A stretch of DNA of 64,000 bases, taken from an uncultured Planctomycetia bacterium (GTDB lineage Bacteria > Planctomycetota > UBA8108 > UBA1146). Positions within the stretch are counted from its first letter, which is position 1. Every line of letters starts with the position of its first letter. Below the pieces are notes generated by a model that saw only the letters and a program-made list of their open reading frames with translations, ran no database searches and was not told the DNA's origin. The DNA is taken from NCBI GenBank assembly GCA_964422295.1, contig CAYRAM010000002.1:24052-88051 (forward strand), read 5' to 3'. Shown piece after piece: positions 8,171 through 57,056 of this stretch. The position numbers and the translations under genes are program-made.

Positions 8171-8319
8171 GCTCTCCGGCGGCAATCCAGCAGATCGAAC
8201 TCCCCATTCAATTGGTGTTCCCCTTTCCGGCGTGAGGCAACACGGATACCCTGTCACCACCCTGTTGATCGCCTTCGCAAAAGGCATGTCGCAAGCGCTC
8301 GGGGTGGGGGGATATTTCA

Positions 8320-9417: not shown

Positions 9418-9537
9418 GGATCTCCCTGAAAAGGCGAAGCGGGATGTCCAACGGTGTCCTTGGAAGAGTCGCAGACAGGTCCTGTCGTTTCAGAGGAGTT
9501 GTTGGAATCGGAAAGCAGAGGAGATACGAAAGCAAAA

Positions 9538-9573
9538 AAAAGCCCCGAAGGCTGCACGCCTTCGGGGCTTTTT
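9538..9573. terminator. Bidirectional Rho-independent terminator between the convergent mraY and secreted-protein genes.
   Basis: aaaagccccgaaggc...gccttcggggcttttt, a GC-rich stem with A and T tracts on both sides. Confidence 0.55.
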
Positions 9574-9592
9574 CCAAATCCAACCAGACTGA

Positions 9593-10297: not shown

Positions 10298-10779
10298 CAG
10301 GGACCTTCTTTCTAAAATCTATCCGACTCAATGAGCACAAACCTCGGGGTTTCCCGTGGGTCGGCCATTGGCCAAACTTCATCGATCTTCCAACATTCTC
10401 AGGTTGACTCAGGTGGATGAGAAGCCCGGGGCTCAAGAGAACACCCGATCCGCAGCCTCATTCCCCATTCCCCAAGTACGAAAGGTACCCCGGACAACCG
10501 GAGACAGTAATCCAGAATACGGGATGAGACGCACTTTGGCCAGTATCGATTTTTGACCCCAGGAAGCCTGAAACCTCGAAATTCGTCTTTTTTGCCCGCT
10601 TGCCTGGGTCCTGGTATCGGATATCTTCTGATGATTGCTGGCTATTTTGCCGATCTTGGGGCCTGAACAGGTCCAGGAAGAGAGTTCCCGTCGAGGAAAG
10701 CCCAATCGTCAGGATGCGCCAGGCAAATCCTCTGGGACCGATTTTGACCACCATTTTCCATGGACAAAGGGGCCATTGA

Positions 10780-12105: not shown

Positions 12106-12141
12106 GGCTTATCTGGTGCCAATTTCATCGTCTCGATGGAA

Positions 12142-12250
12142 GCCGAGAGGCCGAGAAGCCGAGAGGCCGAGAAGACGATGGAAGACGGATGGGAGACCGA
12201 AGTAGGTTTCTGGTGCACCATGCCGCATTGCAAACATGCCGCATCGCAAA
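12142..12250. repeat. Two short tandem direct-repeat blocks in the leader of the dockerin-protein gene.
   Basis: (gccgagag/gccgagaa)x4 lies at 12142-12173. Two adjacent 16-mers, catgccgcattgcaaa and catgccgcatcgcaaa, lie at 12219-12250, ending about 27 bp before the ATG at 12278. Confidence 0.5.
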
Positions 12251-12277
12251 GATGTAACAAATAGGGAGAGAGATCCC

Positions 12278-13387: not shown

Positions 13388-13504
13388 CCGATTGCACCCG
13401 ATCCGCCCCCTCCTTTTCGAGGAGGCGGATCGGGTGTGAGATCCTCCCTCTTCTGATACCATTTTTCACGGGTTGCTCGCAGGGAGAACCCAGTGAGGAA
13501 TGCC

Positions 13505-41026: not shown

Positions 41027-41944
41027 TTACCAACCCCGATCCTGAAGCCGCTCCTCTTGCGGAAGTTTGGTCGCGTCGATGCCCGGCATCGCCTCACCGA
41101 GATCCCTTGAGGCATCGGCGATCTCCGACGCGTCCTCAAAATGGGCTGTCGCATGAACGATGGCCTTGGCGGTACGCAGGGGATCGGTCGACTTGAAGAT
41201 TCCCGAACCGACGAAGACCGCTTCCGCACCCAGACGCATGGCGAGAGCAGCATCCGCAGGAGTGGCAATCCCCCCGGCGGCAAAGTTCGGAACCGGCAAT
41301 CGTCCCTCGGAGGCAACCTGGCGAATCAGGGAATATGGCGCTCCATGATCCGTGGCGAGGGTCATCCATTCTTCTTCCGGGGCAGTGGTCAGTTGGCGGA
41401 TTTGAGTGTGAATCGCCCTCAGGTGACGTACCGCTTCGGTAATATCTCCGGTTCCTGCCTCACCCTTGGTGCGCAGCATCGCGGCACCTTCGCCGATGCG
41501 ACGCAGTGCTTCCCCGAGGTTCGTTGCACCGCAGACGAAAGGAACCTTGAAGCGATTTTTGTCGATGTGATGGGCATGATCCGCAGGGGTCAGGACTTCC
41601 GATTCGTCGATGAAGTCGACTTCCAGCGCTTGCAAAATTTCTGCTTCGACGAAGTGGCCGATCCTGGCCTTGGCCATCACTGGAATCGAGCAGATCTTCT
41701 GGATCTCCTCGACCTTCTCCACGGGTGACATGCGGGCGACACCGCCATCACGGCGGATGTCGGAGGGAACCCGTTCCAATGCCATGACTGCCACCGCTCC
41801 CGCCTCTTGGGCCACATGGGCCTCTTCTACAGAGGTAACGTCCATGATGACCCCTCCGCGGAGCATTTCTGCCAAGCCGATTCGGGTTCTGTGGTCGTCT
41901 GAGAGGCCCTCTCCGCGCAGGGGAGGCTGGTATCGGTCATTCAT
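41027..41944 (-). CDS. pdxS: Pyridoxal 5'-phosphate synthase lyase subunit.
   Basis: '[14 protein letters not shown]', '[32 protein letters not shown]', 'RTKGEAGTG' and '[31 protein letters not shown]'. The start is at the ATG preceded by GGAAGGA. Confidence 0.95.
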
Positions 41945-42537
41945 GCGTTTGAATCCTTCCAGGCGGATGAACGGGGAGAAGGAACGATGCCCCCCGTGCA
42001 GCGGCCAGCGGTGTTGAGTTTGCACCCGGATTCTGAGCGATGCGAGCAGATCGAAGCGACTCTACGGGTTTCCCGGGGCGATTCTGGTGGTTATTCTGGG
42101 GGGCGACCTGCGGGAAATTCGGGGATATGAATCGCGGGGATACCTCTGGGCCCATTTCTACGTGGTCCCGGTGGGTGGGGGAATTAAGTGTGAGTGGATC
42201 GGCCGTTGCCAGGAACCACCTGTGGTGATTCCACAAGGGACCGATCATTTCCAGCGGGGTATTCAAGCGTCTGATGGGAGTCAATTCCTGACCGACCAGC
42301 CCTGAGTGTACATTTTGAATCACTGGCGGTTTCACGGCCCGTTCGGTTCCGATGTACAGGGGAACCGGATTCGGGGCTCGAAGAGACAGCCATCGAGGGA
42401 GAACCGAACACTGTGTTTGCGGCGACATTGCGAACCAGGGTTAGGCGTGAACGAACATTGGATGGATCGATGAACATCGTTGTGGAAACGACTCTGGCAA
42501 GGAGTCCCGTTTCCTGCCCGGAAAAGAGCCAAGCTAT

Positions 42538-43869
42538 ATGACTTCAACAAAACTGTGGCTGATGATATTTCTTCTGCTGTGTCCGGGATGGGTCCATGGC
42601 CAATTGTTTGAGCGCCCTGTCGTACTCGAAGGAGTGAGTGCGATCTCTCCGGGTTCAACACAGGAGAATTTGACCATCACCATCCGGGGCGGTCGAATCA
42701 CCGAGATCTCTCAAACCGCAGACGTTCCGCTGATGGCCAAGAAAATCCCTGCCCAGGGCCTCTTCGCCACCGCCGGTCTCGTCGATCACGCATCAAACCT
42801 GACTCTTCCCGTCGGCGGAGCAGGTGCAGCGGAACAGTGGAGTTGGGATGGTTTTGACCGCTATTCGAGGGATGCCATCGAAGCCGTGCTCGCTGCGGGA
42901 GTGACGCGGGTTCACCTGGTCCCGGCGAGGGGCGAGGGAATCAGTGGCAGATCCTGCTGGGTATCGCTGAAAAATTCCCAAGGTGGGGGACACGGTGTTC
43001 TCATCGAAGAGGAAACAGCGCTGTGCGTCAATCTTGCAGCCGGGACTCCCGCCAACAGAATCCGATCCTACGCCAAAATCGTCGCCGCGTTTCGCGGTGC
43101 CCGCGATCGCAGGGACGCACTCGACAGTTACGAATCAGACCTGGAGGAATACCTCGAGGAACTCAAGAAATGGATTGAGGAGAATGACTCCGCAGAGGGT
43201 GACGAAGAAAAGGATGAAGAAAAGATGGACGGCGATGACGGGGACAAGGAGAAGTCGGATGATTCCGATAAAGCCCCTGAAAAGCCACGCCGACCCGATC
43301 TGGATGCCACCTCGGATATCCTGCTGCGCGCCGTCAATCACGAATTGCCGGTATTGATCACCGCCAGAAAGTCTGCGGATCTGATCAATGCCTGTGAACT
43401 GATCCGCGACTACGAACTGGATGCCATCATCCACGGTGCCGATGAGGCTGAGTTGGTGATCGATCAACTCAAAGAGTTGGAGGACGTTTCTTTCATCATC
43501 GATGAACCAGCCATGCCATTGGAGTCCTCGGGGTCGGGAGTCTTCACTTCCAGGCCTCGTCGCCCGTCCAGTCTGACGAAAGTTCTCGATGACCATGATT
43601 TTGATTGGGTCATCGGCAGTGGTGGATCGGGATCGGGATTATGGAGGATGACCCGCAAGATGACCGGGGGTGAGGCTCTCGCCAGTGCCCAGTCCACCAA
43701 CCTGCGTGGACTCAAGAGCCGAAGGGATTGGCTCAGGCCCGGCCAAAGGCACATCGTTTTGTGGAGTACCAATCCGGCAACGGATGCCTCAGCACGTCCA
43801 GTAAAAGTCCTCATCGACGGGGACGTGGTGTGGGAAGAAACCTCAGCAGCGAGAGGGGGACGTTTCTGA
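42538..43869 (+). CDS. Secreted amidohydrolase-superfamily paralog 1 of 8 (metal-binding HxH replaced by 'DHA').
   Basis: Signal peptide 'LWLMIFLLLCPGWVHG'. The N-terminal beta-sandwich 'ITIRGGRITEI', the HxH-region 'ATAGLVDHASN' and a C-terminal 'VKVLIDGDVVWEE' are present. An acidic KE-rich insert 'EENDSAEGDEEKDEEKMDGDDGDKEKSDDSDK' is in the middle. Confidence 0.6.
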   Translation: MTSTKLWLMIFLLLCPGWVHGQLFERPVVLEGVSAISPGSTQENLTITIRGGRITEISQTADVPLMAKKIPAQGLFATAGLVDHASNLTLPVGGAGAAEQWSWDGFDRYSRDAIEAVLAAGVTRVHLVPARGEGISGRSCWVSLKNSQGGGHGVLIEEETALCVNLAAGTPANRIRSYAKIVAAFRGARDRRDALDSYESDLEEYLEELKKWIEENDSAEGDEEKDEEKMDGDDGDKEKSDDSDKAPEKPRRPDLDATSDILLRAVNHELPVLITARKSADLINACELIRDYELDAIIHGADEAELVIDQLKELEDVSFIIDEPAMPLESSGSGVFTSRPRRPSSLTKVLDDHDFDWVIGSGGSGSGLWRMTRKMTGGEALASAQSTNLRGLKSRRDWLRPGQRHIVLWSTNPATDASARPVKVLIDGDVVWEETSAARGGRF

Positions 43870-45086
43870 TGCAGATCAAAACGATCCGACGTCACTGTTT
43901 CACACTACCGCAGCGTACTCAGGCGTCATTGCTGTTGATCACTTTGGCAGTTTTGTGGGTGATCGGTCAGCCTTTCGCTTTCGCCGGCAAACCGATGACG
44001 GTCATCACCGGGGCCGCCGTTCTGCTGCCGGATGGAACCGTCGAAGATAACTGGGCAGTATCGGTGGGCCCGGATGGCACCATCAGCGCCTTGCTTCCGG
44101 CCGAATCTTTCGATGACGATGTCGAGGAATGGATCACCTATCAGGCACCGGCTGGATCGGTATTGACACCGGGATTGCATGATTTGATGGGAGCGCTCGG
44201 GACAAGAGGGAAGCCTGGATCCCTGCGGGCAGGGAAGCTGCTCATCGATCCTGAATTGGATGCGGGTCACAGCTTTGACAGCAGTGATCCCTGGCTCGAT
44301 GAAGCTGCCAAACACGGGGTCCTCTACACCACACTGGCGGCTCAGCCACTGGGAGTGGTGAACGGAAAAAGCGCAACCTTCCTTTGCCAGACTTCTGGCG
44401 CAGCAAAGAGGCTCTCCGATGGAAAGACGATGCTGGCATTGGGAGATTCGGTTCTCTCGAATGATCGGATGCCCACCAGCAGAACTTCACTGCTGTCGAT
44501 TTGGCGCGAATGGATCGCTAGTCAGCCCTCGATTCTGAATTCCCCCGGAATCCTTTACGTCGCGGAGGGGATGGATCTCCGCCAAGCGCTGGGTCTGACG
44601 TGGTCAAAGGCGGCGATTCCGGTGTTTATTCACACCGGTGGCGATGCGCGTTCACCCCTGGAGCTATTGGGCAGGCTTGGCAAACAGTCCGGTCCTGTCC
44701 ACATGGTCGTGGGCCCCTTTCTCGAAGGGGGAGATCGGGCGCATCTGATGATGGCGGTGAGCGCTTCCCGGCAAGGAGTGGAATTGAGTTTTGCTGGAGG
44801 TCTTCCGGCGGGCCCCACGGATCACCTGCGTGGAAGTGCCGCGCTGGCGGTTGCAGCGGGAATGGATTCTACCGCAGCACGGAGAGCACTCTTCAGCAAT
44901 CCTGCCCACGTATCAGGAGCCTCTGATACCGGTGTGATTGCCGCAGGAAACAGGGCTGACATGGTGCTCTTCTCCGGAGATCCTCTCGACCCGGCCTCCG
45001 AGGTCATACACGTGTGGCGCGGGGGGCAGGGGATGCGAGTGGCCCTTCCCGGTGAAGTCGAAGAAATGGAGACGATCAGAAGATGA
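43869..45086 (+). CDS. Secreted amidohydrolase-superfamily paralog 2 ('LHD' in place of HxH).
   Basis: ATG 43869 overlaps the upstream TGA (TGATG). Signal peptide 'LLLITLAVLWVIGQPFAFA'. 'LTPGLHDLMGAL' and a C-terminal 'ADMVLFSGDPLDPASEVIHVWRGG' are present. Confidence 0.6.
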   Translation: MQIKTIRRHCFTLPQRTQASLLLITLAVLWVIGQPFAFAGKPMTVITGAAVLLPDGTVEDNWAVSVGPDGTISALLPAESFDDDVEEWITYQAPAGSVLTPGLHDLMGALGTRGKPGSLRAGKLLIDPELDAGHSFDSSDPWLDEAAKHGVLYTTLAAQPLGVVNGKSATFLCQTSGAAKRLSDGKTMLALGDSVLSNDRMPTSRTSLLSIWREWIASQPSILNSPGILYVAEGMDLRQALGLTWSKAAIPVFIHTGGDARSPLELLGRLGKQSGPVHMVVGPFLEGGDRAHLMMAVSASRQGVELSFAGGLPAGPTDHLRGSAALAVAAGMDSTAARRALFSNPAHVSGASDTGVIAAGNRADMVLFSGDPLDPASEVIHVWRGGQGMRVALPGEVEEMETIRR

Positions 45087-46621
45087 ACAATGCGCAACTG
45101 AACAGATATACACAGGTGATCCTGGCACTCGTTGTCATTTTGGGAGTGGCCCACGGGTCCGTCCACGGGAATGCCCAGGATTCCACTGATCCGGTCAACT
45201 CCTATGCAGTCAAGGCTGCCAAGGCTCATCTGGGTAATGGTCAAGTCGTCGAAAATGCCCTGATTGTCGTGCGCGATGGGCGTATCGAAAGCGTCACCGC
45301 CGGTGGAAGTGCTCCCGATGGGCTGACATTGATAGAAGTGACGGAAGTTACACCGGGACTGATCGATGCCAACGCCAAGATCGATGTCATGGATGCACTT
45401 CTTTATCCCACGGAGGACCCGCGGCTGACGATTCTCAGAGCGCTGGGGATGGCAGATCAATACCACGGCGGCGACGTTTGCCCCTGCGGTACGGTGTGTC
45501 CTGCGGTGACTTTGCACCGCCACGATGAAAGTTGCCTCTTCTGCGGTTATCCAGAGCATGATCCCCACTCCCATGCACACGATGAGGAGGAGGAGGAAGA
45601 AGAACTCCTGGAACTTGAGAAGCAGGCGATGGCCGCAGGAGTTCCTGCAGAGAGCGGACTGGTTACCGATCAGTCCAGTGAAGTGGTTCCCCAATTTGAA
45701 ATCATGGATGGCATCGATCACGGTTCCAAAGACTTCGATCGTTTGCTGAAGGAAGGTGTGACGACCGTCTACATCAGCCCCGATGGATCCGCCGTGATCG
45801 GATCACGGGGTGCGACGATGAAAACCGGTGGCCCGGTGCTGGACAGGTACATGGGAATCGGCTCGGTGAAAACCGTTGTTGGAAGTGACTCCTATCGCTA
45901 CGGAACGCGTAATCGCAGTCCCTTCCGTGGCTTTGTCACGATTTACACTCGCCGTCCCGATTCCAGAATGGGCGTGGGCTGGGTCTTCCGCAGGGCATTT
46001 TATGATGCCCTCCTGAGAGCCCGCGGTTTGGAGCCGATCGGGGCGGACAAGACCTCGGCGGAAGCATCGAAAGTCTTGCAGGGAGTCCTCGCCGGTGAAA
46101 TTCCGATGCGAATTCAGGCCCGTACCGGCAGCGACATCGAGACGGCTTACCGTTTCGCCAAGGAGTTCGGTGTTTCCTTCACCCTGGAAGACCCGGTTGA
46201 AGCGTGGAAGCGTGTCGATCTCCTCAAGGAAGCGGGGACACCCGTGGTCTTCGGGCCGATTTTCGACCAGCCCAGCGGGATTACCGCCGGGTCCGGAGAG
46301 ATGCGGAATCGTCGTTTGCATACGGTTCGAGATCTTTCCAATGCCGGAATCCCAATGGCGTTGAGTGCCCAGGACCTGCGTGGTGAAGAAGGTCTGGCCC
46401 GGCAGGCGATGCTGGCGATTCGTTATGGAGTGGATCCGCAAGAAGCGCTGCGCATGGTGACCCAATATCCCGCTCAGTTATTGGGAATAGAAGATGAAGT
46501 GGGAACTTTGGAATCGGGCCGCAGAGCGGACCTGGTTTTCTGGAATGGTTCCCCATTCTCGGCATTGACCAGGATCGAAAAGGTCATGCTGGACGGCGTA
46601 ATTTCATACGAAAGAAACTGA
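45083..46621 (+). CDS. Secreted amidohydrolase-superfamily paralog 3 ('IDA').
   Basis: ATGA overlap with paralog 2. Signal peptide 'VILALVVILGVAHGSVHG'. 'VTPGLIDANAKID', a poly-Glu insert 'HDEEEEEEELLELEK' and a C-terminal 'ADLVFWNGSPFSALTRIEKVMLDGVI' are present. Confidence 0.6.
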   Translation: MNNAQLNRYTQVILALVVILGVAHGSVHGNAQDSTDPVNSYAVKAAKAHLGNGQVVENALIVVRDGRIESVTAGGSAPDGLTLIEVTEVTPGLIDANAKIDVMDALLYPTEDPRLTILRALGMADQYHGGDVCPCGTVCPAVTLHRHDESCLFCGYPEHDPHSHAHDEEEEEEELLELEKQAMAAGVPAESGLVTDQSSEVVPQFEIMDGIDHGSKDFDRLLKEGVTTVYISPDGSAVIGSRGATMKTGGPVLDRYMGIGSVKTVVGSDSYRYGTRNRSPFRGFVTIYTRRPDSRMGVGWVFRRAFYDALLRARGLEPIGADKTSAEASKVLQGVLAGEIPMRIQARTGSDIETAYRFAKEFGVSFTLEDPVEAWKRVDLLKEAGTPVVFGPIFDQPSGITAGSGEMRNRRLHTVRDLSNAGIPMALSAQDLRGEEGLARQAMLAIRYGVDPQEALRMVTQYPAQLLGIEDEVGTLESGRRADLVFWNGSPFSALTRIEKVMLDGVISYERN

Positions 46622-46670
46622 TGATTTTCCCGCCATCGAAGTGGCGGGTGCATTGAAACCGAGGTATTCG

Positions 46671-48212
46671 ATGTCGACCTTGATGAACAAACTTCTGGCC
46701 CTGGTGACTGCACTGCTATTGATATGCCAGCATGGCACACTGGAGGCACAATCCTCTCCCAAGGTCGCCTTGACCGGGGGCAAAATTTTGACCGTCTCCG
46801 GGGCTCCTGTCGTCGACGGCACCATCCTGATCGAAAACGGGATCATTCAGGCTGTCGGCGATGGATCGATGGCGATTCCCTACGATGCCATGGAAGTGGA
46901 TTGCAGCGGGATGATCCTTGCACCCGGGTTGGTCGATGCCCACAACCCGGCAGGGCTGGATATCCCCAATGAAAATCTGTCGGTAGCACCCTTTGTCGAC
47001 GTCTATGACGCCATCGATCCCTCCCGCTTCTTCTTTGAAAATTCCCTGCGCAATGGCGTTTCTACGGTTCATGTCATGCAAGGCAACAACTGTGTTGTCG
47101 GGGGAGTCAGTCGGGTCGTTCACCCCATCGGACTGTCTCCAGACGAGATGACCCGTTTGCCAGGGATTGCTCTCAAGATGTCGGTATCCCCCAAGGGAGG
47201 ATACGACCGTCTGAGACAGCGCGCAGAGCTTCGGGAAGTCTTCAGCGAGTTTGATCGTTGGCATCAGGATCTTGCCGAAACCCGTTACGGCCAGGAAGCG
47301 GAAAACAGTGATGAGCTGGATCCTCTGCCACCTGCGGAAGCCCGTGAAAAGGGCAAGTCGTTGATTCGGGAAGAGGACCTGGATGACCGCCATCGCCATC
47401 TGGCTTACCTCAGTGATGGAAAACTCGGTGCCTGGCTGCACTGTGGTTCAGCGACGGATGTGGCTCCCGCCCTCGAGATGATCGAGCAGAGGGGGTGGAC
47501 AGGCAGGGCTGTCCTTGTCCTGTCGGGAGATGCCCCCCTCGCCGCCGACGAAATCGCGGCGGCAAAGGTTCCCGTCGTATTGGACAGCAACCTGATCCAC
47601 CGGGAGCGGGATGCCATCAGTGGAGAAGTTGAGGAGACCTTCATTCCTGAGGTGATGCGCAGAAAGCGGATTCGATTTGCTCTTCAGAGTGGACGCAGCA
47701 ATGTCATTCCTGAAAATCTTCTGACCTACCAGGCTGCTCGCCTCGTCCGCAACGGCATGTCCCAGGAGCGGGCGCTTCGGGTGATCACTCTCGGTGCCGC
47801 AGAGATCTGTGGAGTGGCTGATCAATACGGCTCCATCGACCAGGGCAAAGTCGCAAATATCGTCATGTGGACCGGCAATCCTCTCGAGATGACCTCTTGG
47901 GTTCAGAAGGTCTGGATCGAAGGAATCCTCGCCTACGACCGGGAGAAGGACGCACGGCTGGAGAGACTTTTCCCCGATGCCCCTGAAATAGAGGCTGTCG
48001 GTGAGCCCCTTGCAGAGGATGAAACTGCCGCCGAGACACCTGCGGAGGCACCTGAAGGAGATGGGGAAGAGGGAGAAGCGGCCGAGGATGGGTCCAAGTC
48101 CGATGGAGAAGATGGAGCAGAGCCCCTGAAAAAGGATCGCAAGAGTGGTGAGGATTCTCCGAAGCCGACCCCAGCTCCCGAACCGGACTCCGGAAACAAG
48201 GGAGGCCTCTAG
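46671..48212 (+). CDS. Secreted amidohydrolase-superfamily paralog 4 ('DAHN', one His retained).
   Basis: ATG 46671 is preceded by GAGGT. Signal peptide 'LLALVTALLLICQHG'. 'LAPGLVDAHNPAG' and a C-terminal 'ANIVMWTGNPLEMTSWVQKVWIEGIL', followed by an acidic tail 'EDETAAETPAEAPEGDGEEGEAAEDGSKSDGEDG'. Confidence 0.6.
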   Translation: MSTLMNKLLALVTALLLICQHGTLEAQSSPKVALTGGKILTVSGAPVVDGTILIENGIIQAVGDGSMAIPYDAMEVDCSGMILAPGLVDAHNPAGLDIPNENLSVAPFVDVYDAIDPSRFFFENSLRNGVSTVHVMQGNNCVVGGVSRVVHPIGLSPDEMTRLPGIALKMSVSPKGGYDRLRQRAELREVFSEFDRWHQDLAETRYGQEAENSDELDPLPPAEAREKGKSLIREEDLDDRHRHLAYLSDGKLGAWLHCGSATDVAPALEMIEQRGWTGRAVLVLSGDAPLAADEIAAAKVPVVLDSNLIHRERDAISGEVEETFIPEVMRRKRIRFALQSGRSNVIPENLLTYQAARLVRNGMSQERALRVITLGAAEICGVADQYGSIDQGKVANIVMWTGNPLEMTSWVQKVWIEGILAYDREKDARLERLFPDAPEIEAVGEPLAEDETAAETPAEAPEGDGEEGEAAEDGSKSDGEDGAEPLKKDRKSGEDSPKPTPAPEPDSGNKGGL

Positions 48213-48213
48213 G

Positions 48214-50943
48214 ATGCTGACAGGCAAGTGGACCCGGCTGACCGGGTACCTTCTTTTCTTCGCATGGGTGTCCCTGTTTCCTGCGGGGGAGTTGCTGGCT
48301 GGCGGTGACTTCGTTCTGCGGGCGGGTCATCTGCACACGGGGCAGCAAGGGATCGTCGATGGAGCCATCGTCGTTCGCGACGGCAAGGTTGTTGCGAGTG
48401 GGCCTTGGCAAGAGGTGTCATCCCAATTGCCGGGAGATCTGCCGGTGATGCACTGGCCCGATGCCTATGTCACCCCGGGAATCGTCGCCGCGTCCAGTGC
48501 TGTCGTGGGACCTCACCGGGGTCAAGAGTCGATTTCGGCGGAGTATCGTGCGGTGGATGGATACGACACTTATGGCGATCACCGCCCGCTGCTCGAAACC
48601 GGGGTCACCACCATTCATGTCAATCCCGGTGAGCATCGCTTGATGTCGGGCCAAGGTGGTGTCGTCAAATTGGTCGGCGCTCCGTCAGAGCGGGTTTTGT
48701 CCAGGTCCTCCGATCTGTCGATCTCCCTGAGGGATCAGGTGGACAGTCCCGATCCCCTGCTGGAGATCCCCTTCCCGGCTTCCAGTGACGTTCAGATAGA
48801 ACCACCCACTGCGCAGAGGCCCGGAAGTAGAATCGATCGTCTTCTCGCATTGAAAGAGGCGCTCGACGAGGCCAAGGAGGATCGTTGGGCCCATGGCCAC
48901 TTGGCGGATCATTGGCAGTCCGGAGTTCCCTTGCGGATCTCCGCCGACGCCACTCCCGACATTCAGGGGATTTTGCAGATGCTGGAAACGGAAGATCGCA
49001 ACGGATATCTGGTGACCGATGCCGTCATCCAGGGAATGGAAGACCGGCTTGCCGCCGCAGGGGTCCCCGTCGTTTTGCGAATGAGTGGTCCCCAGGGAGA
49101 TGTTCCCAATGGGGGAGTCCTCAAGCCCCATGGCTTTCCAAAGTTGAATGGAAATCCTCCATGGGCATTGGCCCCCCCCGGGGATGACCTCTCGAGCATG
49201 GGGTGGGCGATCACCGAAGCGGCTGCCCACATGGAATCCCCCGAATCGGTGATCCCGTGGGTGACCCACAATGCAGCAACCATCCTCGGAGTCGCCGATC
49301 GGGTCGGCCATCTGGAGGTGGGGGCCGATGCGGATGTCGTCGTCTGGAATGATGCTCCGTGGGAGATTCATGCCCGACCCCTCGAAGTTTTCATCGACGG
49401 TTTGCGGGCGTGGCAGCCGGATGAAGGAAGTGCGACGGTGATCAGTGCGGACACCATCTGGATCTCACCACAGGAGCAGATCACCGGTGGTCAAGTACTG
49501 CTGGAGGATGGCAAGATCACCGCTGTCGGCCACATGGTTCCGCATCCACCCCATTGTCAAATTATCGATGCCGGCCCGGGCAGTTTTATGACTCCCGGAT
49601 TCATCGACTGCTACGGACATCTGGGATTGGACGGGGAAACGGCTTCGATGGGTACCGGTGATCGACTCCATCGTCTGCTTGGAGTGACCGGTCCCCGGGA
49701 GCACAGCGTCGCACTCGCAGGAGTCACCAGCCAACTTATGGCACCGCGTCGATTGCAGAGGGGGGCCGGGATCGGTGTTCTGGCGAAGACCTCCGGCTCC
49801 AGTCGTGCACAACGGATCGCCGATGATTATTCGATTCTCCTGCTGGAGATCTCCGATTCGGGCTTCAGTGCTACCAAACGGCTTTTCGATCAGGGTGCTA
49901 AGTACCTAGAGACGTGGCAAAAGTACGAGAAAGATCTTGCCGAGTGGAAGAAGAAGAAGGCCGCAGGGGAAAAGATCGAAAAGAGCAAAGAGGAGGAGGT
50001 CGAGGAGGTTCCCGAAGAGAAAGAGGATGATCCTTTGACCGGAATCTGGGAGATGACCGTCAGTGGAGGTCCGATTCCAGAACCTGAGACGGCAACGATT
50101 TCGATCACGCTGAACGGATCAGAGTGGGAAGGCAGGGTCATCGAACCCGTACCCCCGGTCCAGATCAGGATTGTCGGTACCCTCGAAGGGACGACTCTCG
50201 TGGGAACCATCGAAGTTCCCGACGGTGACCTGCCCGATACCCCAAAGATCGAGGCTGAACTTTCAGGAGAAGATTCACTCACGGGAAAGATTTCGATCCT
50301 GACCTTTTCTGCCGATCTCACGGGAGTGCGAACGAGCAAGGAAGCGAAGACTTTCAAAGTCACCCGTCGCAAGAAGCAGGCGGACGACGGCAGACCGATG
50401 CCTCCGCGGGTGAGGGACACCCTGGAACCGATCCGCACGGTTCTGGAGAAGAAGACCCCCGTACTCGTGGCAGTTCGGGGATTCAACTCTTTGCCTGCGG
50501 TCATCGACTATTTCACGGAGAAAAAAATCCCGTTTGCGGTCCAACTCGATGAAAACATGAGATTCCACAGGGACCTGCTGATTGAGAAAAAAGTCCCGGT
50601 CCTGCTTCCTGAGGAGATGAGTTTCGAGGCCGCGGATAACTCCTATATGCCTTCGACGTTCCTGGGCAGGGCGGGGGTCACAGTGGGCTTCAGAAGTTCT
50701 GCAGGAGATGGTGCCCGACGCTTGCCATTCCGTGTCTGGAATGAGGTTGCCAATGGCATGGCTCCTGATGCAGCACTCACCGCGCTGACGACGGGCGCAG
50801 CCCATGTCGTGGGAGCGCATGATCGAATCGGCCAAATCCGCGAGGGATTGGCTGCGGATCTCCTGATTTGGAAGGGGCACCCCTTCGAAGCGGGAAGTCA
50901 TCTCGAAAGGGTCTTTGTCAACGGAGAGGAGGTCCACCGATGA
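48214..50943 (+). CDS. Secreted tandem double-module amidohydrolase-superfamily paralog 5 (909 aa).
   Basis: The ATG at 48214 is 2 nt after the upstream TAG. RBS AAGGGAGG. Signal peptide 'LLFFAWVSLFPAG'. Module 1 has 'VTPGIVAASSAV', module 2 has 'MTPGFIDCYGHLGLDG', and the C-terminus reads 'ADLLIWKGHPFEAGSHLERVFVNGEEV'. Confidence 0.6.
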   Translation: MLTGKWTRLTGYLLFFAWVSLFPAGELLAGGDFVLRAGHLHTGQQGIVDGAIVVRDGKVVASGPWQEVSSQLPGDLPVMHWPDAYVTPGIVAASSAVVGPHRGQESISAEYRAVDGYDTYGDHRPLLETGVTTIHVNPGEHRLMSGQGGVVKLVGAPSERVLSRSSDLSISLRDQVDSPDPLLEIPFPASSDVQIEPPTAQRPGSRIDRLLALKEALDEAKEDRWAHGHLADHWQSGVPLRISADATPDIQGILQMLETEDRNGYLVTDAVIQGMEDRLAAAGVPVVLRMSGPQGDVPNGGVLKPHGFPKLNGNPPWALAPPGDDLSSMGWAITEAAAHMESPESVIPWVTHNAATILGVADRVGHLEVGADADVVVWNDAPWEIHARPLEVFIDGLRAWQPDEGSATVISADTIWISPQEQITGGQVLLEDGKITAVGHMVPHPPHCQIIDAGPGSFMTPGFIDCYGHLGLDGETASMGTGDRLHRLLGVTGPREHSVALAGVTSQLMAPRRLQRGAGIGVLAKTSGSSRAQRIADDYSILLLEISDSGFSATKRLFDQGAKYLETWQKYEKDLAEWKKKKAAGEKIEKSKEEEVEEVPEEKEDDPLTGIWEMTVSGGPIPEPETATISITLNGSEWEGRVIEPVPPVQIRIVGTLEGTTLVGTIEVPDGDLPDTPKIEAELSGEDSLTGKISILTFSADLTGVRTSKEAKTFKVTRRKKQADDGRPMPPRVRDTLEPIRTVLEKKTPVLVAVRGFNSLPAVIDYFTEKKIPFAVQLDENMRFHRDLLIEKKVPVLLPEEMSFEAADNSYMPSTFLGRAGVTVGFRSSAGDGARRLPFRVWNEVANGMAPDAALTALTTGAAHVVGAHDRIGQIREGLAADLLIWKGHPFEAGSHLERVFVNGEEVHR

Positions 50944-52181
50944 GGATCTCTACAGTCATGAATTGCCTGATCCTGTTGCTCTTTATCTTCGGTGTTCCAG
51001 CCGGCTTGGTCCACGGGGATACCTTGGCCTTCAAAGTCGGCAAGGTGGTGACCTTCGATGACGACGAGCGGGTGATCAACAATGCCACCGTCATCGTCAA
51101 GGATGGCAAGATCGCAGAGCTGGGCAAAACCAAGGACATCCAAATCCCGGCGGGTGCACGAGTGATCGAGCACCCGGACTTGTGGCTGGTTCCCGGATTT
51201 GTCGAGTGCCACAACCACACCGGTGGCGGCTCCCCCGATCTGCACGATTACGTTTATCTGACCAATCCCGGCTTGCGAACCCTTGAATCGATCGTTCCCG
51301 ACAACCCGGAGATGATTCGCGCCCGCGCCGGAGGAGTGACCACCGTGCTGACGATCCCGGGAAGCGGCAACAACATGTCCGGCTTCGGAACGATTTTGAA
51401 GACGGCGGGTGGTTCGGTGGAGGAGTCGGTGCTCAAGGCGCCCGGCTCGTTGAAGATCGCCCAGGCAGGGAACCCGGAGCGTTACTTTTACGGTGTCGGT
51501 CGATCCTTCATGAACTTCAATACTCGGCAGACTCTTCGTAAAGCCAAAGACTACCATTTGGCCAGAACCGAGTGGGAGGAGGGCAGGCTCGCCGTGGAGC
51601 CCGCCTTCAATCTGAACTGGGAAGAATTCCGTCCCCTCTTCCGTCGGGAGACTGTGGCTTCGGTTCACACCCAGATTTATCAGGTATTGATGACCACCGT
51701 CAAAATGGTGGCGGGTGAGTTCAACATCCGAACGGTGCTGGATCACTCGACCTTTGACGCATGGAAAGTGGCCCCGCTGGTCAATGCGGATGAGTCGATC
51801 TACACCATCAATGGCCCTCGACAGTTGCACTATGACCGCACACAGAGAAGGCTGATGGGAAATGCTGCTCGCTGGTGGCAAGGTGGAGTCCGTAAACTGG
51901 GGATCAACACCGACTCGCCAGTGGTTCCCCAGGAAGAACTCGCTTATCAGGCGAGCATGGCTTGTTACTACGGTTGGAAGCCTTACGAAGCTCTGAAAGG
52001 CATCACCCGAATCCCTGCAGAAGCACTGATGCTGGAACATCGTCTCGGAAGTATTTCTGTCGGTCTGGATGCCGATTTCTGCCTGTGGACCGGGGATCCC
52101 ATCGATCCGAGATCTTCCTGTGAGGTGACTGTCATCGATGGTGAAGTCACCTACGAGGCCAGTGAGAAGAGGGTCTTCTAA
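50940..52181 (+). CDS. Secreted amidohydrolase-superfamily paralog 6, the only one with an intact H-x-H metal-binding motif.
   Basis: ATGA overlap. Signal peptide 'LILLLFIFGVPAGLVHG'. 'LVPGFVECHNHTGGG' (H-x-H) and a C-terminal 'ADFCLWTGDPIDPRSSCEVTVIDGEVTY'. Confidence 0.65.
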   Translation: MRISTVMNCLILLLFIFGVPAGLVHGDTLAFKVGKVVTFDDDERVINNATVIVKDGKIAELGKTKDIQIPAGARVIEHPDLWLVPGFVECHNHTGGGSPDLHDYVYLTNPGLRTLESIVPDNPEMIRARAGGVTTVLTIPGSGNNMSGFGTILKTAGGSVEESVLKAPGSLKIAQAGNPERYFYGVGRSFMNFNTRQTLRKAKDYHLARTEWEEGRLAVEPAFNLNWEEFRPLFRRETVASVHTQIYQVLMTTVKMVAGEFNIRTVLDHSTFDAWKVAPLVNADESIYTINGPRQLHYDRTQRRLMGNAARWWQGGVRKLGINTDSPVVPQEELAYQASMACYYGWKPYEALKGITRIPAEALMLEHRLGSISVGLDADFCLWTGDPIDPRSSCEVTVIDGEVTYEASEKRVF

Positions 52182-53476
52182 TGAAATTCAGCAGATTCGC
52201 CCTGGTTCTTCCCCTCCTGTGCCTGATCAGCATTGAAGCGTTTGCCAGTGATCGTGTAACCGTGATCAAGGCGGGTTCGGTGATCACAGGGACCGGTGAA
52301 ACGATCAGTCCCGGAGAAGTCGTCATCGAAGATGGCAAAATCACGCTGGTCGGATCCCAATTGGAGATTCCTGATAACGCCAGGATCATCGACGCCCGCA
52401 ATCAAACATTGATGCCTGGGTTGGTCCTTGCACAAACCAGCCAAGGCTTGCTCGGCGGCAGGGTCAGTGGGGTCGGTTGTGATCAAACCGTACTTACACG
52501 GTGGGTCGAATCGGAAATGGATTGGGAAGCATTTCTCGAAGCAGGCGTGGTGGCTGCAGCGTTCGTTCCTGCTGGAACCGGTTTTCATGGACAGGCAATC
52601 GTTGTTCATACCGGTCCCGAAGGGGGAGATCGAATCCTTCGCGAGTCCGTTTACTTGCCCTTGGCGGTGACCGGTTCAACATCCTTGCATCGGACGGTCC
52701 AACAGGCTTTCGATGGGGCCAGGGGTGAGATCGAGAAGGTCAAGAAAGCGCGCGAAAAATGGGATAAGGAGCAGGAGGAGGCCAAGAAAAAAGCGAAAGA
52801 GGAAAAGGAGTCAGAAGAGGATGCCGCTGCGGACTCCAAGGAAAAAGAGAAAGAGGAACCAAAGGAGTTCAAGGCCCCGGAAATCCGACCTTCCCTGAAA
52901 CCGCTGGTAGCGATTTTGGAAGAGAAATCCACCGCCATGCCGATGGTGGTGTCCATCAGTTCTCCCGGGGCGATGTTGCATGTCGATGCTGCCCTGGAAA
53001 GTGTCAAAGAATTGGAAGACCGGGACCCCCAAGCCATCTTTGTCCTTCCCGGCAGCAGAAACGGTGCGTTTCACGTAGTTGTCGATCAGTTGATCGAGCG
53101 CAAAGCGACGGTGTTGATCCCACCCGGAATGAGTGCATTGCCCGATACTTATTTCCGTTACCATGTTCCGGCGGCACTCTCGAGGGGGGGCTGTGACGTG
53201 ATCACCCTTCCGCGATCGGATAATCCCGGCGGCATGAGAGAACTCCCCGGTTTTCTTGCGGAACAGGTTCGTTATGGCATGTCGGCGGAAGACGCCATCG
53301 CCTCACTGACTTCCAAGCCGGCCAAGTTCCTTGGCCTGGGTGACCGCATGGGAACCATCGAAGAGGGCAAGGATGCCCATTTGATTGTGCTCAATGGATC
53401 GCTTCTTGATCCAGGGGCCCATGTCATGAAAACCATCATCTCCGGTAAAGTTGTCTGGGATCGGGAGGATCGATAA
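52181..53476 (+). CDS. Secreted amidohydrolase-superfamily paralog 7 (no His in the HxH region).
   Basis: TAATG overlap. Signal peptide 'FALVLPLLCLISIEAFA'. 'LMPGLVLAQTSQG', a KE-rich insert 'KAREKWDKEQEEAKKKAKEEKESEEDAAADSKEKEKEEPKE' and a C-terminal 'AHLIVLNGSLLDPGAHVMKTIISGKVVW'. Confidence 0.6.
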   Translation: MKFSRFALVLPLLCLISIEAFASDRVTVIKAGSVITGTGETISPGEVVIEDGKITLVGSQLEIPDNARIIDARNQTLMPGLVLAQTSQGLLGGRVSGVGCDQTVLTRWVESEMDWEAFLEAGVVAAAFVPAGTGFHGQAIVVHTGPEGGDRILRESVYLPLAVTGSTSLHRTVQQAFDGARGEIEKVKKAREKWDKEQEEAKKKAKEEKESEEDAAADSKEKEKEEPKEFKAPEIRPSLKPLVAILEEKSTAMPMVVSISSPGAMLHVDAALESVKELEDRDPQAIFVLPGSRNGAFHVVVDQLIERKATVLIPPGMSALPDTYFRYHVPAALSRGGCDVITLPRSDNPGGMRELPGFLAEQVRYGMSAEDAIASLTSKPAKFLGLGDRMGTIEEGKDAHLIVLNGSLLDPGAHVMKTIISGKVVWDREDR

Positions 53477-54876
53477 TGACACGCCCTATTCGCACCCTTA
53501 CGGCCATGCTCGCGTTCGTCATCGTATTCACGGATTTTCCTGTGATTCCAGGTGGATTCAGTCTCTCCGGAAGTATCTGTGAAGCTCAGGATCCGCCTCG
53601 ACGCCGCAGAGGTCGTCGCAGGCCGACCCCTCCTCCGACTCCTGCTCCCGAACCTGAGAAGAAGGAAGTCATCGCTTCCGATTCGGAAGATGAATACCTC
53701 GTCATCAAGGGAGCAACCATTCACACGGTGACTGGTGGAACTCATAGGAATGGAACCCTGATCAGCAAAAACGGCAAGATCTATCAAATCGTTGCCGGTC
53801 CCGTTGATGCTCCAGAGGGGGCAGAGATCATCGAAGCGGCGGGCCATCACATTTATCCCGGACTCGTGGCTTTCCGATCATCCGGTCTCGTCGGATCGGG
53901 AGAGGCTGAGAAGAGCCAGGATCCTTTTGGCCTCAACACCACCATGGGTTTGGCAGCAGGGATCACTTCTACATGGAACGGATCCCGAGTTACCAAATTG
54001 GTTCATGGTAGCCTCGAAGATCTGACGATCCGCCCAAAGTCCTTCAGCAGGATCAATTACAGTTATCGTAATTCGCGCGGGCGCAAGGATCTGCGGCAGG
54101 CGTTTGACCGGGTGCTGGAACATCTGCGTGCTCTGGAGCGCCATGAGGAGGAGAAGAAGGAGAACCCCGAGGCAAAGCCGCCGGAGGACAAATGGATCAA
54201 GGGGGTCTTTGCCGTCGTCCGCAGTTTGCTGACAGGGGAGAGTAAGGCTTTGGTGCGAACGAGATCGATCGCAGAGATTCGAGAGTATTCTTCCCTGGCC
54301 CGGAAATACGGCTTTGACATCGTTTTTGAAGGTGCCGAAGAGGGGTGGATCGATCCCGGAGCCCTCTCCCGATGCGGGGCAAGTGCCATTATTTCACCGC
54401 GTTCCCGTGTGAATGCCGACGATGAACTGAATCGGGAGAGTGGATCGAGCATCGAGAATGGAAAGATTCTACACGATGCCGGTGTTCCTCTTGTGATCAT
54501 CCCTGGCAGTACCGGAATTGCCCTTTGGGGTCTCGCCGGCAGGGATCTGTCCCACCTTCCCCTCGAGGCCGCTTTCGCCGTCCGTGGAGGGTTGCCGGAA
54601 CAGGTCGCCATCGAGGCGATCACCATCGAGCCGGCGAGGCTGCTCGGAGTTGCCGATCGGGTGGGTTCTCTCGAAGTGGGAAAAGATTCCGACTTTATCA
54701 TCACCGATGGGGATCTGCTCGATTACATGACCTTGGTTCGGTGGGCGATCGTCAATGGCAAGATTCAATACGACAAGGAAAAAGAAGGCATTCTGGACCA
54801 CATTAGACCGGGTGGTGATCAAGACGCTCCTGCGCCCGATGACCATTGGCCTCGGCGCTTGGGTGATCCCCTCTAG
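53476..54876 (+). CDS. Secreted amidohydrolase-superfamily paralog 8 (no His in the HxH region).
   Basis: TAATG overlap. RBS GGGAGGA. Signal peptide 'LTAMLAFVIVFTDF', followed by a basic/Pro-rich 'PPRRRRGRRRPTPPPTPAPEPE'. 'IYPGLVAFRSSGL' and a C-terminal 'SDFIITDGDLLDYMTLVRWAIVNGKIQY'. Confidence 0.6.
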   Translation: MTRPIRTLTAMLAFVIVFTDFPVIPGGFSLSGSICEAQDPPRRRRGRRRPTPPPTPAPEPEKKEVIASDSEDEYLVIKGATIHTVTGGTHRNGTLISKNGKIYQIVAGPVDAPEGAEIIEAAGHHIYPGLVAFRSSGLVGSGEAEKSQDPFGLNTTMGLAAGITSTWNGSRVTKLVHGSLEDLTIRPKSFSRINYSYRNSRGRKDLRQAFDRVLEHLRALERHEEEKKENPEAKPPEDKWIKGVFAVVRSLLTGESKALVRTRSIAEIREYSSLARKYGFDIVFEGAEEGWIDPGALSRCGASAIISPRSRVNADDELNRESGSSIENGKILHDAGVPLVIIPGSTGIALWGLAGRDLSHLPLEAAFAVRGGLPEQVAIEAITIEPARLLGVADRVGSLEVGKDSDFIITDGDLLDYMTLVRWAIVNGKIQYDKEKEGILDHIRPGGDQDAPAPDDHWPRRLGDPL

Positions 54877-55010
54877 GAGGCGATCTCCCTTTCCTGACAT
54901 AAGTTCTTTGACCCTTCTTCCGGGATTGACACTTTTGGAGGAAAGGCAAGAATTGAACTCACAGATGTACCCCTGCTACCTTGCCATCCTCTGTGAGAAA
55001 TGGTCCCTGA

Positions 55011-57056
55011 ATGCACTCCCCAAATCCCCGGATACTCCGGTTTTTTGCCCTGATTCTGTGCCTATGGGCTTGGAATCCGTATGGCGAGGTTTGCGGCCAG
55101 TGTGTTGAAGAAGACCTTCCTGTTTTCGGGATCAATCCTGGTGATCGGGTGGGCCGTTCGGTTGCGGTCAGCGGCGGAAGGATCTTCGTTGGAGCGATAG
55201 GGGATGATGGGGGTGGATTCCTCAGTGGAAGCGTCAGGTCCTTTGTGCGCTCAACATCAGGGTATCAACTGGAACACAATTTCAATGGCCAATCAGGAGC
55301 AGAATACGGAACTTCCATCGCCGCTGATGGAAATTGGCTGGCGATCGGAGCTGCGGGCCAGGGCTATATCGAGATGTGGAAAAGGGATCGATTCGGATGG
55401 AACCATCACTCCACAATTATCGATTGGAATGGTCACGACGGCGACGGATTTGCCAGCAGCCTTGACTTTAATGATGACCTGCTCGCTGTAGGGAGCCCCA
55501 CGTACATGACAGACATCGGTGAAGCAGGATGTGTGACGATCTGGCGCAGAAACGCCATGGGATTTTGGCTCCTGGAGGAGCGGCTCCTGGTGGATGATCG
55601 AATCGAAGGAGATGACTTTGGAACTTCGGTATCGCTCGACCCCAACGAGGGACTGCTGGTGGGAGCACCGGGGAGAGATGCCAATGGAATCGACAGCGGA
55701 ATCGCAATCCTCTACAACGGGGGACCCGATGGCTGGTCAGAGTCCTCCCGATTTGGTTCCACCGTCGTCAATCCCGGAGACCGATTTGGCACATCGGTGA
55801 GTTTGCGTTCAAATCATGCTCTCATCGGAAGTCCGTACTCCAATTTTGCAGGCCCACTTGCGGGCAAAGTCATTTCCTATCGCAAAGCCGGCTCCATTTG
55901 GATTCTGCTTCCCTATTTGACCCCTGAGCCGGGATCAACCGGCACCGGATTCGGAGCGACCTTGGCGATCGACGGTAATCTGTTGGTCGTGGGAGCACCG
56001 ATGGATACCGGGAATGAAGCGATGCCATCGGGGAGTATAAATATCTACCGATACAATCAGGACTGGATATTGGAAAGCACCCACCAAGGCAATCTCGGTT
56101 CATTTTTGGGGACTGCATTGGCTCTTCACAAAGGAGTTGTTGTTGCAGGAGCACCGATGGACTCCACAGCAGCCGCACTTGGGGGTGGCGTCAAGTACGT
56201 CGTTTCGGGGGACAATGACTGTGACGGCGATGGGGAAAAAGATACCTGTGAGATCTTCAGTGGTGGTGAGCAGGATTGTGATCTCGATGGGATACCGGAT
56301 CAATGCGCGATAAGCCAAGGGCTTGTTGCCGATTGCGATAATGATCTCATCCCTGACAGTTGCTCAACACTTTCCGGGGGTGTTTCTGACTGTGATGCGG
56401 ATGGGGTCCCTGATTCTTGCTCGACAGTTCTGGGGCTGGTCTCGGATTGCAACGAGGATCAAATCCCCGATGTATGCCAGGAAGACTGCAATCAAAATGG
56501 TGATCCGGATGTTTGTGAAGTAATGCACGAAATTGCGGATTGTGATCAAAATGGTTTGGTTGATGAATGTGAAATCGCGGATGGCGGTCTCTCGGATTGT
56601 GATGGAAACGGACTTCCCGACATTTGTGAAGAAGACTGCGATGAAGACGGTTTACCCGACATTTGTGCGGTACTCTCGGGAATCGTAGAGGACTGCAATG
56701 ATAATGAGATTCCGGATGAGTGTGATCTATTGGATCCGCTTCTGAACTCAAACGGGAATGAACTTGTCGATGAGTGTGAGCCCCAATTTATTCGGGGAGA
56801 TGCGGATGGAGATCCGGGTGTCAGATTGGCTGATGCGATTCTGTTGCTCTCGCGGGTCTTTGGGGAAGTCTCCATTCCCGATTGTGACGAAGCCGCAGAT
56901 GCGAATGGAGATGGGGCTTTGGATATCTCCGATGGACTGTATCTGTTGTTTTATGAGTTTGCGGCTGGGGAGGCTCCTCCCGCGCCCTTTCCCGACTGCG
57001 GGATAGCACCTCCGGAGGCGCAACTCCCCTGCACGGAGCATCCGTCCTGCCCTTGA
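55011..57056 (+). CDS. Secreted protein with FG-GAP-like beta-propeller repeats, about 10 tandem TSP3-like Ca-binding 'DCDxDGIPDxC' repeats and a C-terminal dockerin-like module.
   Basis: Signal peptide 'FFALILCLWAWNP'. FG-GAP-like units 'FGTSVSLDPNEGLLVGAPGRDANGIDSGIAILY' and 'FGATLAIDGNLLVVGAPMD'. A repeat array from about 56205 to 56760 reads 'DCDGDGEKDTCE...DCDLDGIPDQCA...DCDNDLIPDSCS...DCDADGVPDSCS...'. The C-terminus reads 'FIRGDADGDPGVRLADAILLLSRVF...ADANGDGALDISDGLYLLFYEF...PFPDCGIAPPEAQLPC'. Confidence 0.65.
   Translation: MHSPNPRILRFFALILCLWAWNPYGEVCGQCVEEDLPVFGINPGDRVGRSVAVSGGRIFVGAIGDDGGGFLSGSVRSFVRSTSGYQLEHNFNGQSGAEYGTSIAADGNWLAIGAAGQGYIEMWKRDRFGWNHHSTIIDWNGHDGDGFASSLDFNDDLLAVGSPTYMTDIGEAGCVTIWRRNAMGFWLLEERLLVDDRIEGDDFGTSVSLDPNEGLLVGAPGRDANGIDSGIAILYNGGPDGWSESSRFGSTVVNPGDRFGTSVSLRSNHALIGSPYSNFAGPLAGKVISYRKAGSIWILLPYLTPEPGSTGTGFGATLAIDGNLLVVGAPMDTGNEAMPSGSINIYRYNQDWILESTHQGNLGSFLGTALALHKGVVVAGAPMDSTAAALGGGVKYVVSGDNDCDGDGEKDTCEIFSGGEQDCDLDGIPDQCAISQGLVADCDNDLIPDSCSTLSGGVSDCDADGVPDSCSTVLGLVSDCNEDQIPDVCQEDCNQNGDPDVCEVMHEIADCDQNGLVDECEIADGGLSDCDGNGLPDICEEDCDEDGLPDICAVLSGIVEDCNDNEIPDECDLLDPLLNSNGNELVDECEPQFIRGDADGDPGVRLADAILLLSRVFGEVSIPDCDEAADANGDGALDISDGLYLLFYEFAAGEAPPAPFPDCGIAPPEAQLPCTEHPSCP

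Follow-up and report, generated by a model that had tools for sequence, protein, structure and literature searches.

A conserved planctomycete operon encoding one ligand-complete and eight ligand-less amidohydrolase-type modules

A 64-kb stretch of DNA from an uncultured Planctomycetia bacterium (contig CAYRAM010000002.1; the whole 64,000-nucleotide stretch is referred to here as the window) contains eight consecutive open reading frames (ORFs), A1 to A8, that encode nine modules of the amidohydrolase type, with A5 being a fusion of two modules. Only A6 carries a complete set of metal ligands, consisting of an H-x-H motif on strand β1, a lysine on β4, histidines on β5 and β6, and an aspartate on β8, which is the classical binuclear-metal set of the amidohydrolase superfamily. 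We consider it probable that A6 and the presumably non-catalytic A1–A5, A7 and A8 proteins form one large periplasmic hetero-oligomer that contains a single kind of catalytic subunit. Amidohydrolase-fold pseudoenzymes and, in other folds, the co-assembly of enzymes with pseudoenzyme paralogs are known; what appears to be new is a conserved operon that combines eight dead modules with one active paralog. In the source annotations these genes are listed only as ‘amidohydrolase family protein’ or ‘hypothetical protein’, and in seven of the eight cases the former label misleads.

A preliminary description of the window had proposed that the H-x-H motif is intact in only one of nine modules, based on a comparison of nine short motifs from the strand that normally carries the first two metal-binding histidines. 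All nine motifs are found in the translations, and the interval to which the proposal referred is exactly the A6 gene, from its ATG to its TAA stop (Table 1). The motifs can be placed in a common register using a conserved (P/A)G anchor, in which the two histidine positions correspond to G+5 and G+7 in every module. Profile-profile alignment using hhalign places the motif on H91 and H93 of A6 in every other module except A3. The global hhalign placement of the A3 β1 strand was discarded as it is misplaced by a Cys/His-rich insert, and because this insert displaces the profile alignment, the A3 register was taken from the PG anchor. The hidden Markov model (HMM) of the A7 family aligns over its full length to Protein Data Bank (PDB) entry 3OOQ, an uncharacterized amidohydrolase from Thermotoga maritima (E 1e-51), with R-T-S positioned under the H-S-H of 3OOQ. 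In AlphaFold2 (AF2) models, strands formed by residues 90–95 and 463–468 of A5 and 81–86 of A7 terminate at the β1 positions. The anchor, the profile alignments, the A7 HMM and the AF2 strands therefore agree that the motifs being compared do belong to the metal-binding strand, and that H-x-H is intact in A6 alone among the nine modules of the window. Counts of orthologs that contain both histidines (Table 1) show the same pattern, which is therefore fixed and lineage-wide and not due to chance.

Scoring of the full ligand set leads to the same result. Residues at the β4, β5, β6 and β8 positions were read from profile alignments to A6, while the β5 and β6 positions of A7 were taken from its alignment to 3OOQ and from the AF2 strand positions. 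A complete and invariant Lys/His/His/Asp set is present in A6 only, whereas the other modules hold isolated remnants: K263 in A3, K169 in A4, H256 in A2 (its sole histidine at a ligand position) and D347 in A7. The β8 aspartate is missing from six of the eight modules other than A6 and is variable in A5 module 2, and in most A4 orthologs the β6 and β8 positions are occupied by arginine and proline, respectively. The 15 orthologs of A5 module 2 that have H-x-H are without the lysine and both distal histidines. A candidate β5 histidine in A7 (H267, proposed by hhalign with low confidence) was rejected, as it lies ~9 residues further along, where the next helix begins. In a check that requires no alignment between paralogs, each histidine of the window proteins was scored within the alignment of its own ortholog group. 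Five histidines are conserved at a level of at least 90% in A6, four of which are ligands, while every other paralog has at most two and A1 has none. With no more than two conserved histidines each, the other groups lack the residues for an HxH + His + His site, whatever the alignment between paralogs, and no complete ligand set is hidden elsewhere in the eight other modules.

The six ligands of A6, whose codons are listed in Table 1, are invariant in 22 diverse homologs and in 74 orthologs from genome loci. A6 matches 3OOQ over its full length (E 6e-42) with every ligand residue aligned (A6/3OOQ segments FVECHNH/FVDAHSH, SLKIA/GLKMA, SVHT/RMHA, LDHS/IEHG and NTDSP/MCDHP), such that this structural-genomics target has its HxH/Lys/His/His/Asp residues at the same positions. 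The window is from a marine Planctomycetota genome, and the nearest relatives of A6, at 80–96% identity, are from Planctomycetota metagenome-assembled genomes. The best characterized relatives of A6 are the Cc2672 L-Arg/L-Lys carboxypeptidase (PDB 3MTW, E 1e-12) and the Caulobacter-type Xaa-Pro dipeptidase family NF051886, which is the best NCBIfam match in the operon (71 bits, where the cut-off is 500). The binuclear HxH/Lys/His/His/Asp set is used by cog1228-type enzymes such as these two. Both cut peptide-type amide bonds, but the scores lie far below family membership; because the match reaches only 71 of 500 bits and the alignments are local, the substrates of these enzymes cannot be transferred to A6. 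The A6 protein also ends in a conserved R411-x-F413 sequence, in which the last residue is aromatic in all 74 orthologs and an arginine occurs at position -3 in 72 of them. No conserved C-terminus is present in the paralogs, and the R-x-F sequence could serve in docking or autoregulation.

Some or all of the ligand-less modules could instead be genuine enzymes whose sites are non-canonical, being metal-independent or built from new residues, in which case the operon would encode a multi-step pathway. Some enzymes of the amidohydrolase superfamily need no metal, LigI being an example, and several modules contain conserved residues that would be compatible with this idea. H134 of A4, located at the end of β2, is conserved in 100% of its orthologs (A6 has leucine and 3OOQ methionine at this position), H135 and H141 at the end of β2 in A5 module 1 are conserved in more than 90%, and H91 and K169 of A4, D347 and an invariant H267 of A7, and H469 of A5 module 2 are all kept. 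The new β2 histidines of A4 and A5 might mark either a non-canonical site or an interface. However, as far as is known, the β8 aspartate is kept even by metal-independent members of the superfamily, so its loss or variability in seven of the eight modules, the presence of at most two conserved histidines in each group outside A6, and NCBIfam scores that are all far under the family cut-offs make a pathway of unconventional enzymes quite unlikely.

The preliminary description had further stated that the fold and secretion signals are kept despite the loss of catalytic residues, and the fold and signal-like N-termini are indeed retained in all eight proteins. When compared with the A6 profile, the eight other group profiles yield hhalign probabilities of 99.9–100% over 363–393 columns, including the most divergent paralog, A1 (99.94%). 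Predicted structures cover A5 (both modules) and A7, with predicted local distance difference test (pLDDT) scores of 86 and 84.5 and predicted template modeling (pTM) scores of 0.73 and 0.81, respectively. The best PDB match of both models is 3OOQ (A5, E 1e-20; A7, E 3e-24 and template modeling (TM) scores of 0.67/0.75); this match, with TM scores of up to 0.70–0.75, is well ahead of the other amidohydrolases among the dozens of amidohydrolase structures matched. A5 module 1, which scores 589 bits against its own profile, is modeled as a β-sandwich plus barrel unit. The amidohydrolase β-sandwich and (β/α)8-barrel fold is thus found in the A5 and A7 models and, for the other modules, in the profile alignments. 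Family profiles detect the relationship less completely. Pfam (Amidohydro_1/3) picks up most of the proteins only by the last ~45–90 residues: Amidohydro_1 matches A3–A8 with 38–62 bits (cut-off 25), A2 reaches 17–21 bits, below the same cut-off, and A1 has no Pfam match at E 0.1 beyond noise. Other NCBIfam equivalogs (HutI, PhnM, NagA and others) score 5- to 20-fold under their cut-offs and align to N- or C-terminal ends only.

Two comparisons in the preliminary description fared differently. A likeness to urease accessory-like subunits is not borne out, as the NCBIfam profiles yield no matches to urease accessory proteins and only weak local matches to the urease alpha subunit, which arise from a shared C-terminal motif (15–24 bits against cut-offs of 354–907); no urease accessory protein is, to our knowledge, a pseudoenzyme of the amidohydrolase fold. 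The analogy to inactive dihydroorotase (DHOase) domains is apt. Two inactive examples are Pseudomonas PyrC’, a supporting protein of aspartate transcarbamoylase, and the DHOase-like domain found in yeast Ura2. Like the ligand-less modules, each has the amidohydrolase fold but no longer its metal ligands, and each plays a structural part in an enzyme complex, as we propose for the modules. They differ in that each is a single dead copy with a non-homologous partner in the cytoplasm, whereas the operon has eight dead modules, a homologous active paralog and a periplasmic location.

The N-termini of all eight proteins are signal-peptide-like, with 12-residue Kyte-Doolittle means of 2.0–3.4, and no second membrane-spanning candidate is present in A1–A8. 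Among close relatives with unsaturated dS values (0.08–0.35), the ratio of nonsynonymous to synonymous substitution rates (dN/dS) is 0.006–0.18 for all eight genes, and the ligand-less genes are thus under strong purifying selection. These data bear on whether the modules are recent duplicates in decay, or pseudogenes in the making, as could be imagined from the absence of catalytic residues in eight of nine modules. All-against-all BLASTP shows that A1–A8 are mutually paralogous with only ~21–41% identity in local alignments, their translations reveal intact reading frames, their dN/dS ratios are low, and orthologs occupy the same positions in loci labeled Planctomycetia, Pirellulales and Phycisphaerae. 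Conserved order across loci and purifying selection refute the decay explanation, to which we assign virtually no weight.

To place the operon in a wider context, one genome per Genome Taxonomy Database (GTDB) species was scanned, which yielded 457 stretches encoding relatives of A6; of these, the 80 best were taken with 10-kb flanks. In these 80 loci the A6 relatives sit in an A1–A8 operon. Ortholog-group profiles identify the exact order A1-A2-A3-A4-A5(two modules)-A6-A7-A8 in 57 of them; among the other 23, ~19 end within the cluster at a contig end, and three split A1 or A3 into two ORFs, one of which also has A4 and A5 as a single ORF. The loci carry the labels Planctomycetia, Pirellulales, Planctomycetaceae and Phycisphaerae. 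Orthology is unambiguous, with a median ratio of the best to the second profile score of 3.4–6.1, and the two A5 modules are fused in all orthologs. The one locus that does not fit the A1–A8 order (L046; chromosome CP070666.1, labeled Gemmatimonadota, positions 1–14388) has only A4–A8 in 21.5 kb, with A1–A3 absent upstream, and represents either a wrong taxonomic label or a reduced variant. The genes that flank the operon in the window, PdxS/PdxT upstream and an FG-GAP protein plus an AddAB-like helicase-nuclease pair downstream, are common to close relatives only, and A1–A8 therefore constitute the conserved unit; the flanking genes offer no functional clue. Within the operon, the gene junctions from A1 to A8 measure -1, -4, +49, +1, -4, -1 and -1 nucleotides and the starts are preceded by purine-rich stretches, a pattern typical of translational coupling. 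Module profiles reveal no further paralog elsewhere in the 64-kb window.

The genomic contexts of distant A7 homologs (L083–L086) delimit the claim that there is one catalytic subunit. Two A6-type genes are present in L083 (7422–9991) and three in L085 (1884–5756), located between A5 and A7 and each with all six ligands, while L086 has one. L084 (8595–11293) contains a two-gene pair, a ligand-complete protein of 469 residues followed by a ligand-less protein of 430 residues, beside TonB-receptor-like genes. Duplication in these variants is confined to the A6 type and the other modules are single. The claim therefore stands for the window and the 80 fetched loci, but in the distant variants there can be two or three genes of the catalytic type. 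Profile-profile scores place the eight dead modules nearer to one another than to A6, which suggests that catalytic and non-catalytic lineages separated early.

Combined with the ligand loss, the retained fold, the purifying selection and the conserved order support the broader proposal of one catalytic subunit plus pseudoenzyme partners, to which we add their probable physical association. We envisage that the eight genes arose by ancient duplication from a 3OOQ-like binuclear-metal amidohydrolase, and that their products would be co-translated, exported to the periplasm and assembled as a hetero-oligomer. The A6 metal center would be formed by H91, H93, a presumably carboxylated K172, H243, H269 and D325, and A6 would perform the hydrolysis, since it alone can build the canonical center. 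A1–A5, A7 and A8 have kept the barrel-plus-sandwich architecture and lost the center, each gaining its own conserved surface, insert or tail. Their most likely role is now structural, substrate-binding or regulatory, in subunits of fixed position that cannot replace one another and that may form walls or gates or provide anchoring. We infer assembly from the fixed gene order, the translational coupling, the oligomeric state of 3OOQ, which is the closest solved homolog, and the fusion of the A5 modules, the last being a Rosetta-stone type hint of interaction. The 3OOQ entry contains 10 chains, and a benchmark of 10–30-chain complexes treats it as a dihedral homomer. 3OOQ is built from copies of a single active-type chain, whereas the operon encodes nine diverged modules, eight of them ligand-less, and its export signals and lineage-specific inserts are unlike 3OOQ.

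A more specific arrangement, which is possible but which we put forward only tentatively, is an obligate, fixed-position hetero-oligomer whose ancestor would be a dihedral homodecamer resembling 3OOQ. Such a paralog ring in the bacterial periplasm would parallel the eukaryotic proteasome or CCT, with the eight non-catalytic modules acting as gates or as walls that bind substrate and A6 as an exchangeable catalytic cartridge, of which other lineages have two or three isoforms. Nine modules and a second copy of A6 would make ten, with A6 perhaps at two positions, and L083 would encode ten modules if its incomplete first gene is an A1 ortholog. The count is weakened by L085, because it has three A6-type genes.

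The ligand-less modules could also be independent non-catalytic periplasmic binders, either lectin-like or solute-binding, that are co-regulated with A6 and form no defined complex. All eight proteins have hydrophobic N-termini consistent with export, each ortholog group has conserved residues and inserts of its own (the A3 knuckle, the A5 β-domain, and charged helices of A1, A5 and A7, all described below), and the complex is a proposed one, all of which would fit separate binders. However, the fixed gene order and overlaps of 1–4 nucleotides imply stoichiometric co-production, the A5 fusion is permanent, and the closest homolog, 3OOQ, is a large homo-oligomer. It would also be unusual for eight distinct binders never to be singly lost or shuffled in the fetched loci, L046 excepted. 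Independent binders are therefore unlikely.

Several observations weigh against a hetero-oligomer built around A6. Its assembly is deduced indirectly, from the gene arrangement and a homolog, and signal peptides were called from hydrophobicity alone. Structural confirmation spans three of the eight dead modules, the rest being covered by profile alignments, in which the per-residue confidence is low at several β5–β8 positions. In several of the dead modules, well-conserved polar residues are kept that could build a non-canonical site, namely H91, H134 and K169 of A4 together with many aspartates and glutamates, H135 and H141 of A5 module 1, and H267 and D347 of A7. Lastly, L046 with only A4–A8 suggests that not every position may be indispensable.

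Other systems offer partial parallels. The animal CRMP/DPYSL proteins (dihydropyrimidinase-related proteins) resemble the modules in being amidohydrolase-fold paralogs without a functional metal center. They form homo- and hetero-oligomers, function in eukaryotic cytosolic signaling and the cytoskeleton, and have no active paralog in the complex; in PDB matches, their similarity to the operon proteins is limited to the N-terminal sandwich and the β1 region. The eukaryotic 20S proteasome β ring is a paralog hetero-oligomer in which catalytic residues are lost in some paralogs. Plant PDX1.2 with PDX1 represents co-assembly of an enzyme with a pseudoenzyme paralog. Both cases have other folds but share with the operon a homomeric ancestor, duplication and partial catalytic loss, while co-assembly of the operon proteins is our proposal. 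We know of no other bacterial operon with eight distinct dead positions, and no description of the eight-gene operon was found in full-text literature searches or in curated family libraries. The portion of a Planctopirus limnophila essential-gene table that was covered has no run of amidohydrolase genes, which says nothing either way about essentiality. If assembled as proposed, the proteins would form one of the most elaborate paralog-built enzyme complexes encoded by a bacterial operon, with nine modules and one kind of active site, and would offer a natural series in which to study the change from homomer to obligate heteromer, beginning with the Thermotoga homomer, passing through the two-gene active/inactive pair and ending with the operon of eight or nine genes. 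That all eight genes are under strong purifying selection and have been kept in a fixed order suggests an important periplasmic function in the Planctomycetota, whose envelope biology is unusual.

Table 1. Positions of the operon genes, ligand residues and other features in the window. The β1 pair gives the residues at G+5/G+7 with ortholog counts; A2 residue numbers start at codon 43866 and are thus +1 relative to the ATG at 43869; aa, amino acids; nt, nucleotides.
Feature	Coordinates	Strand	Description	β1 motif	β1 pair	β4; β5; β6; β8
A1–A8	42538–54876	+	eight consecutive ORFs, nine modules			
A1	42538–43869	+	443 aa; most divergent paralog	AGLVDHASN	A85/N87; both His 0	C163; T275; G300; S364 (six ligand positions A/N/C/T/G/S)
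A2	43869–45086	+	405 aa; ATG shares 1 nt with A1 stop (junction TGATG)	PGLHDLMG	M108/A110; no His in any of 61 alignment sequences	M189; Y231; H256 (74%); G312
A3	45083–46621	+	512 aa; start shares 4 nt with A2 stop	PGLIDANAK	N97/K99; both His 0	K263 (Lys kept); Q345; D370; A426
A4	46671–48212	+	513 aa; GTG at 46641 is an alternative start	PGLVDAHNP	H91/P93; first His 57/69 (83%), both never; second position W/A/S/P in alignment	K169 (97%); H257 (Tyr in most orthologs); R279; R342
A5	48214–50943	+	909 aa, two modules			
A5 module 1	48214–49428	+	aa 1–405	PGIVAASSA	S94/A96; both His 0	S169; S243; gap; P316
A5 module 2	49429–50943	+	aa 406–909	PGFIDCYGH	Y467/H469; second His 75/76, both His 15/76	L543; A753; L778; S829
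A6	50940–52181	+	413 aa, ATG to TAA	VPGFVECHNHTGG	H91/H93; both His 74/74	K172; H243; H269; D325
A7	52181–53476	+	431 aa	PGLVLAQTS	Q/S in window, R/R in most orthologs; both His 0	P160; S258; R293; D347 (93%)
A8	53476–54876	+	466 aa; none of six ligands	PGLVAFRSS	R/S; both His 0	R192; R261; gap; gap
A6 H91	51210–51212	+	ligand codon			
A6 H93	51216–51218	+	ligand codon			
A6 K172	51453–51455	+	ligand codon			
A6 H243	51666–51668	+	ligand codon			
A6 H269	51744–51746	+	ligand codon			
A6 D325	51912–51914	+	ligand codon			
A6 R411-x-F413	52170–52178		C-terminus			
A3 Cys/His-rich insertion	45485–45544	+	aa 135–154			
A4 H134	47070–47072		end of β2			
A4 C-terminal tail	47960–48212		~80 residues			
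A5 H135/H141	48616–48636		end of β2, module 1			
A5 all-β domain	50029–50343	+	~aa 606–710, module 2			
A7 charged helix	52676–52819		48 residues, aa 166–213			
A8 linker	53590–53670		Arg/Pro-rich			
Antisense ORF	50898–52040	-	380 aa			
Sigma-70-like hexamer pair	54926–54953					
Downstream gene	55011–57056	+	FG-GAP repeats			

The ligand-less modules also differ from one another in inserts and tails. The Cys/His-rich insertion of A3 lies just past β1 and contains C135, C139, H145, C151 and C154, which are conserved in 39, 47, 60, 57 and 58 of 66 sequences, respectively; the cluster is probably a small knuckle that binds a structural metal, as opposed to a catalytic site. The C-terminal tail of A4 is acidic, proline-rich and of low complexity. 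Helices or low-complexity segments rich in lysine and glutamate occur between β4 and β5 in A7 (a single charged helix), A5 (aa 551–583) and A1 (aa ~195–255), whereas the β4–β5 region is short in A6 and 3OOQ. In the AF2 model of A5, the long charged helix is followed by the all-β domain inserted in module 2, in which D606, G610 and W612 are invariant and which matches nothing in Pfam. Past the N-terminal hydrophobic segment of A8 lies an Arg/Pro-rich linker (RRRRGRRRPTPPPTPAPEP).

In the surroundings of the operon, a promoter and terminator scan of positions 41900–55200 returned a number of sites no higher than in shuffled sequence; a sigma-70-like hexamer pair is located in the gap upstream of the FG-GAP gene. 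An ORF antisense to A6 most likely just reflects codon composition. The protein encoded by the downstream gene bears a signal peptide, and its FG-GAP repeats are followed by many Cys/Asp-rich repeats of the CD.DG.PD type.

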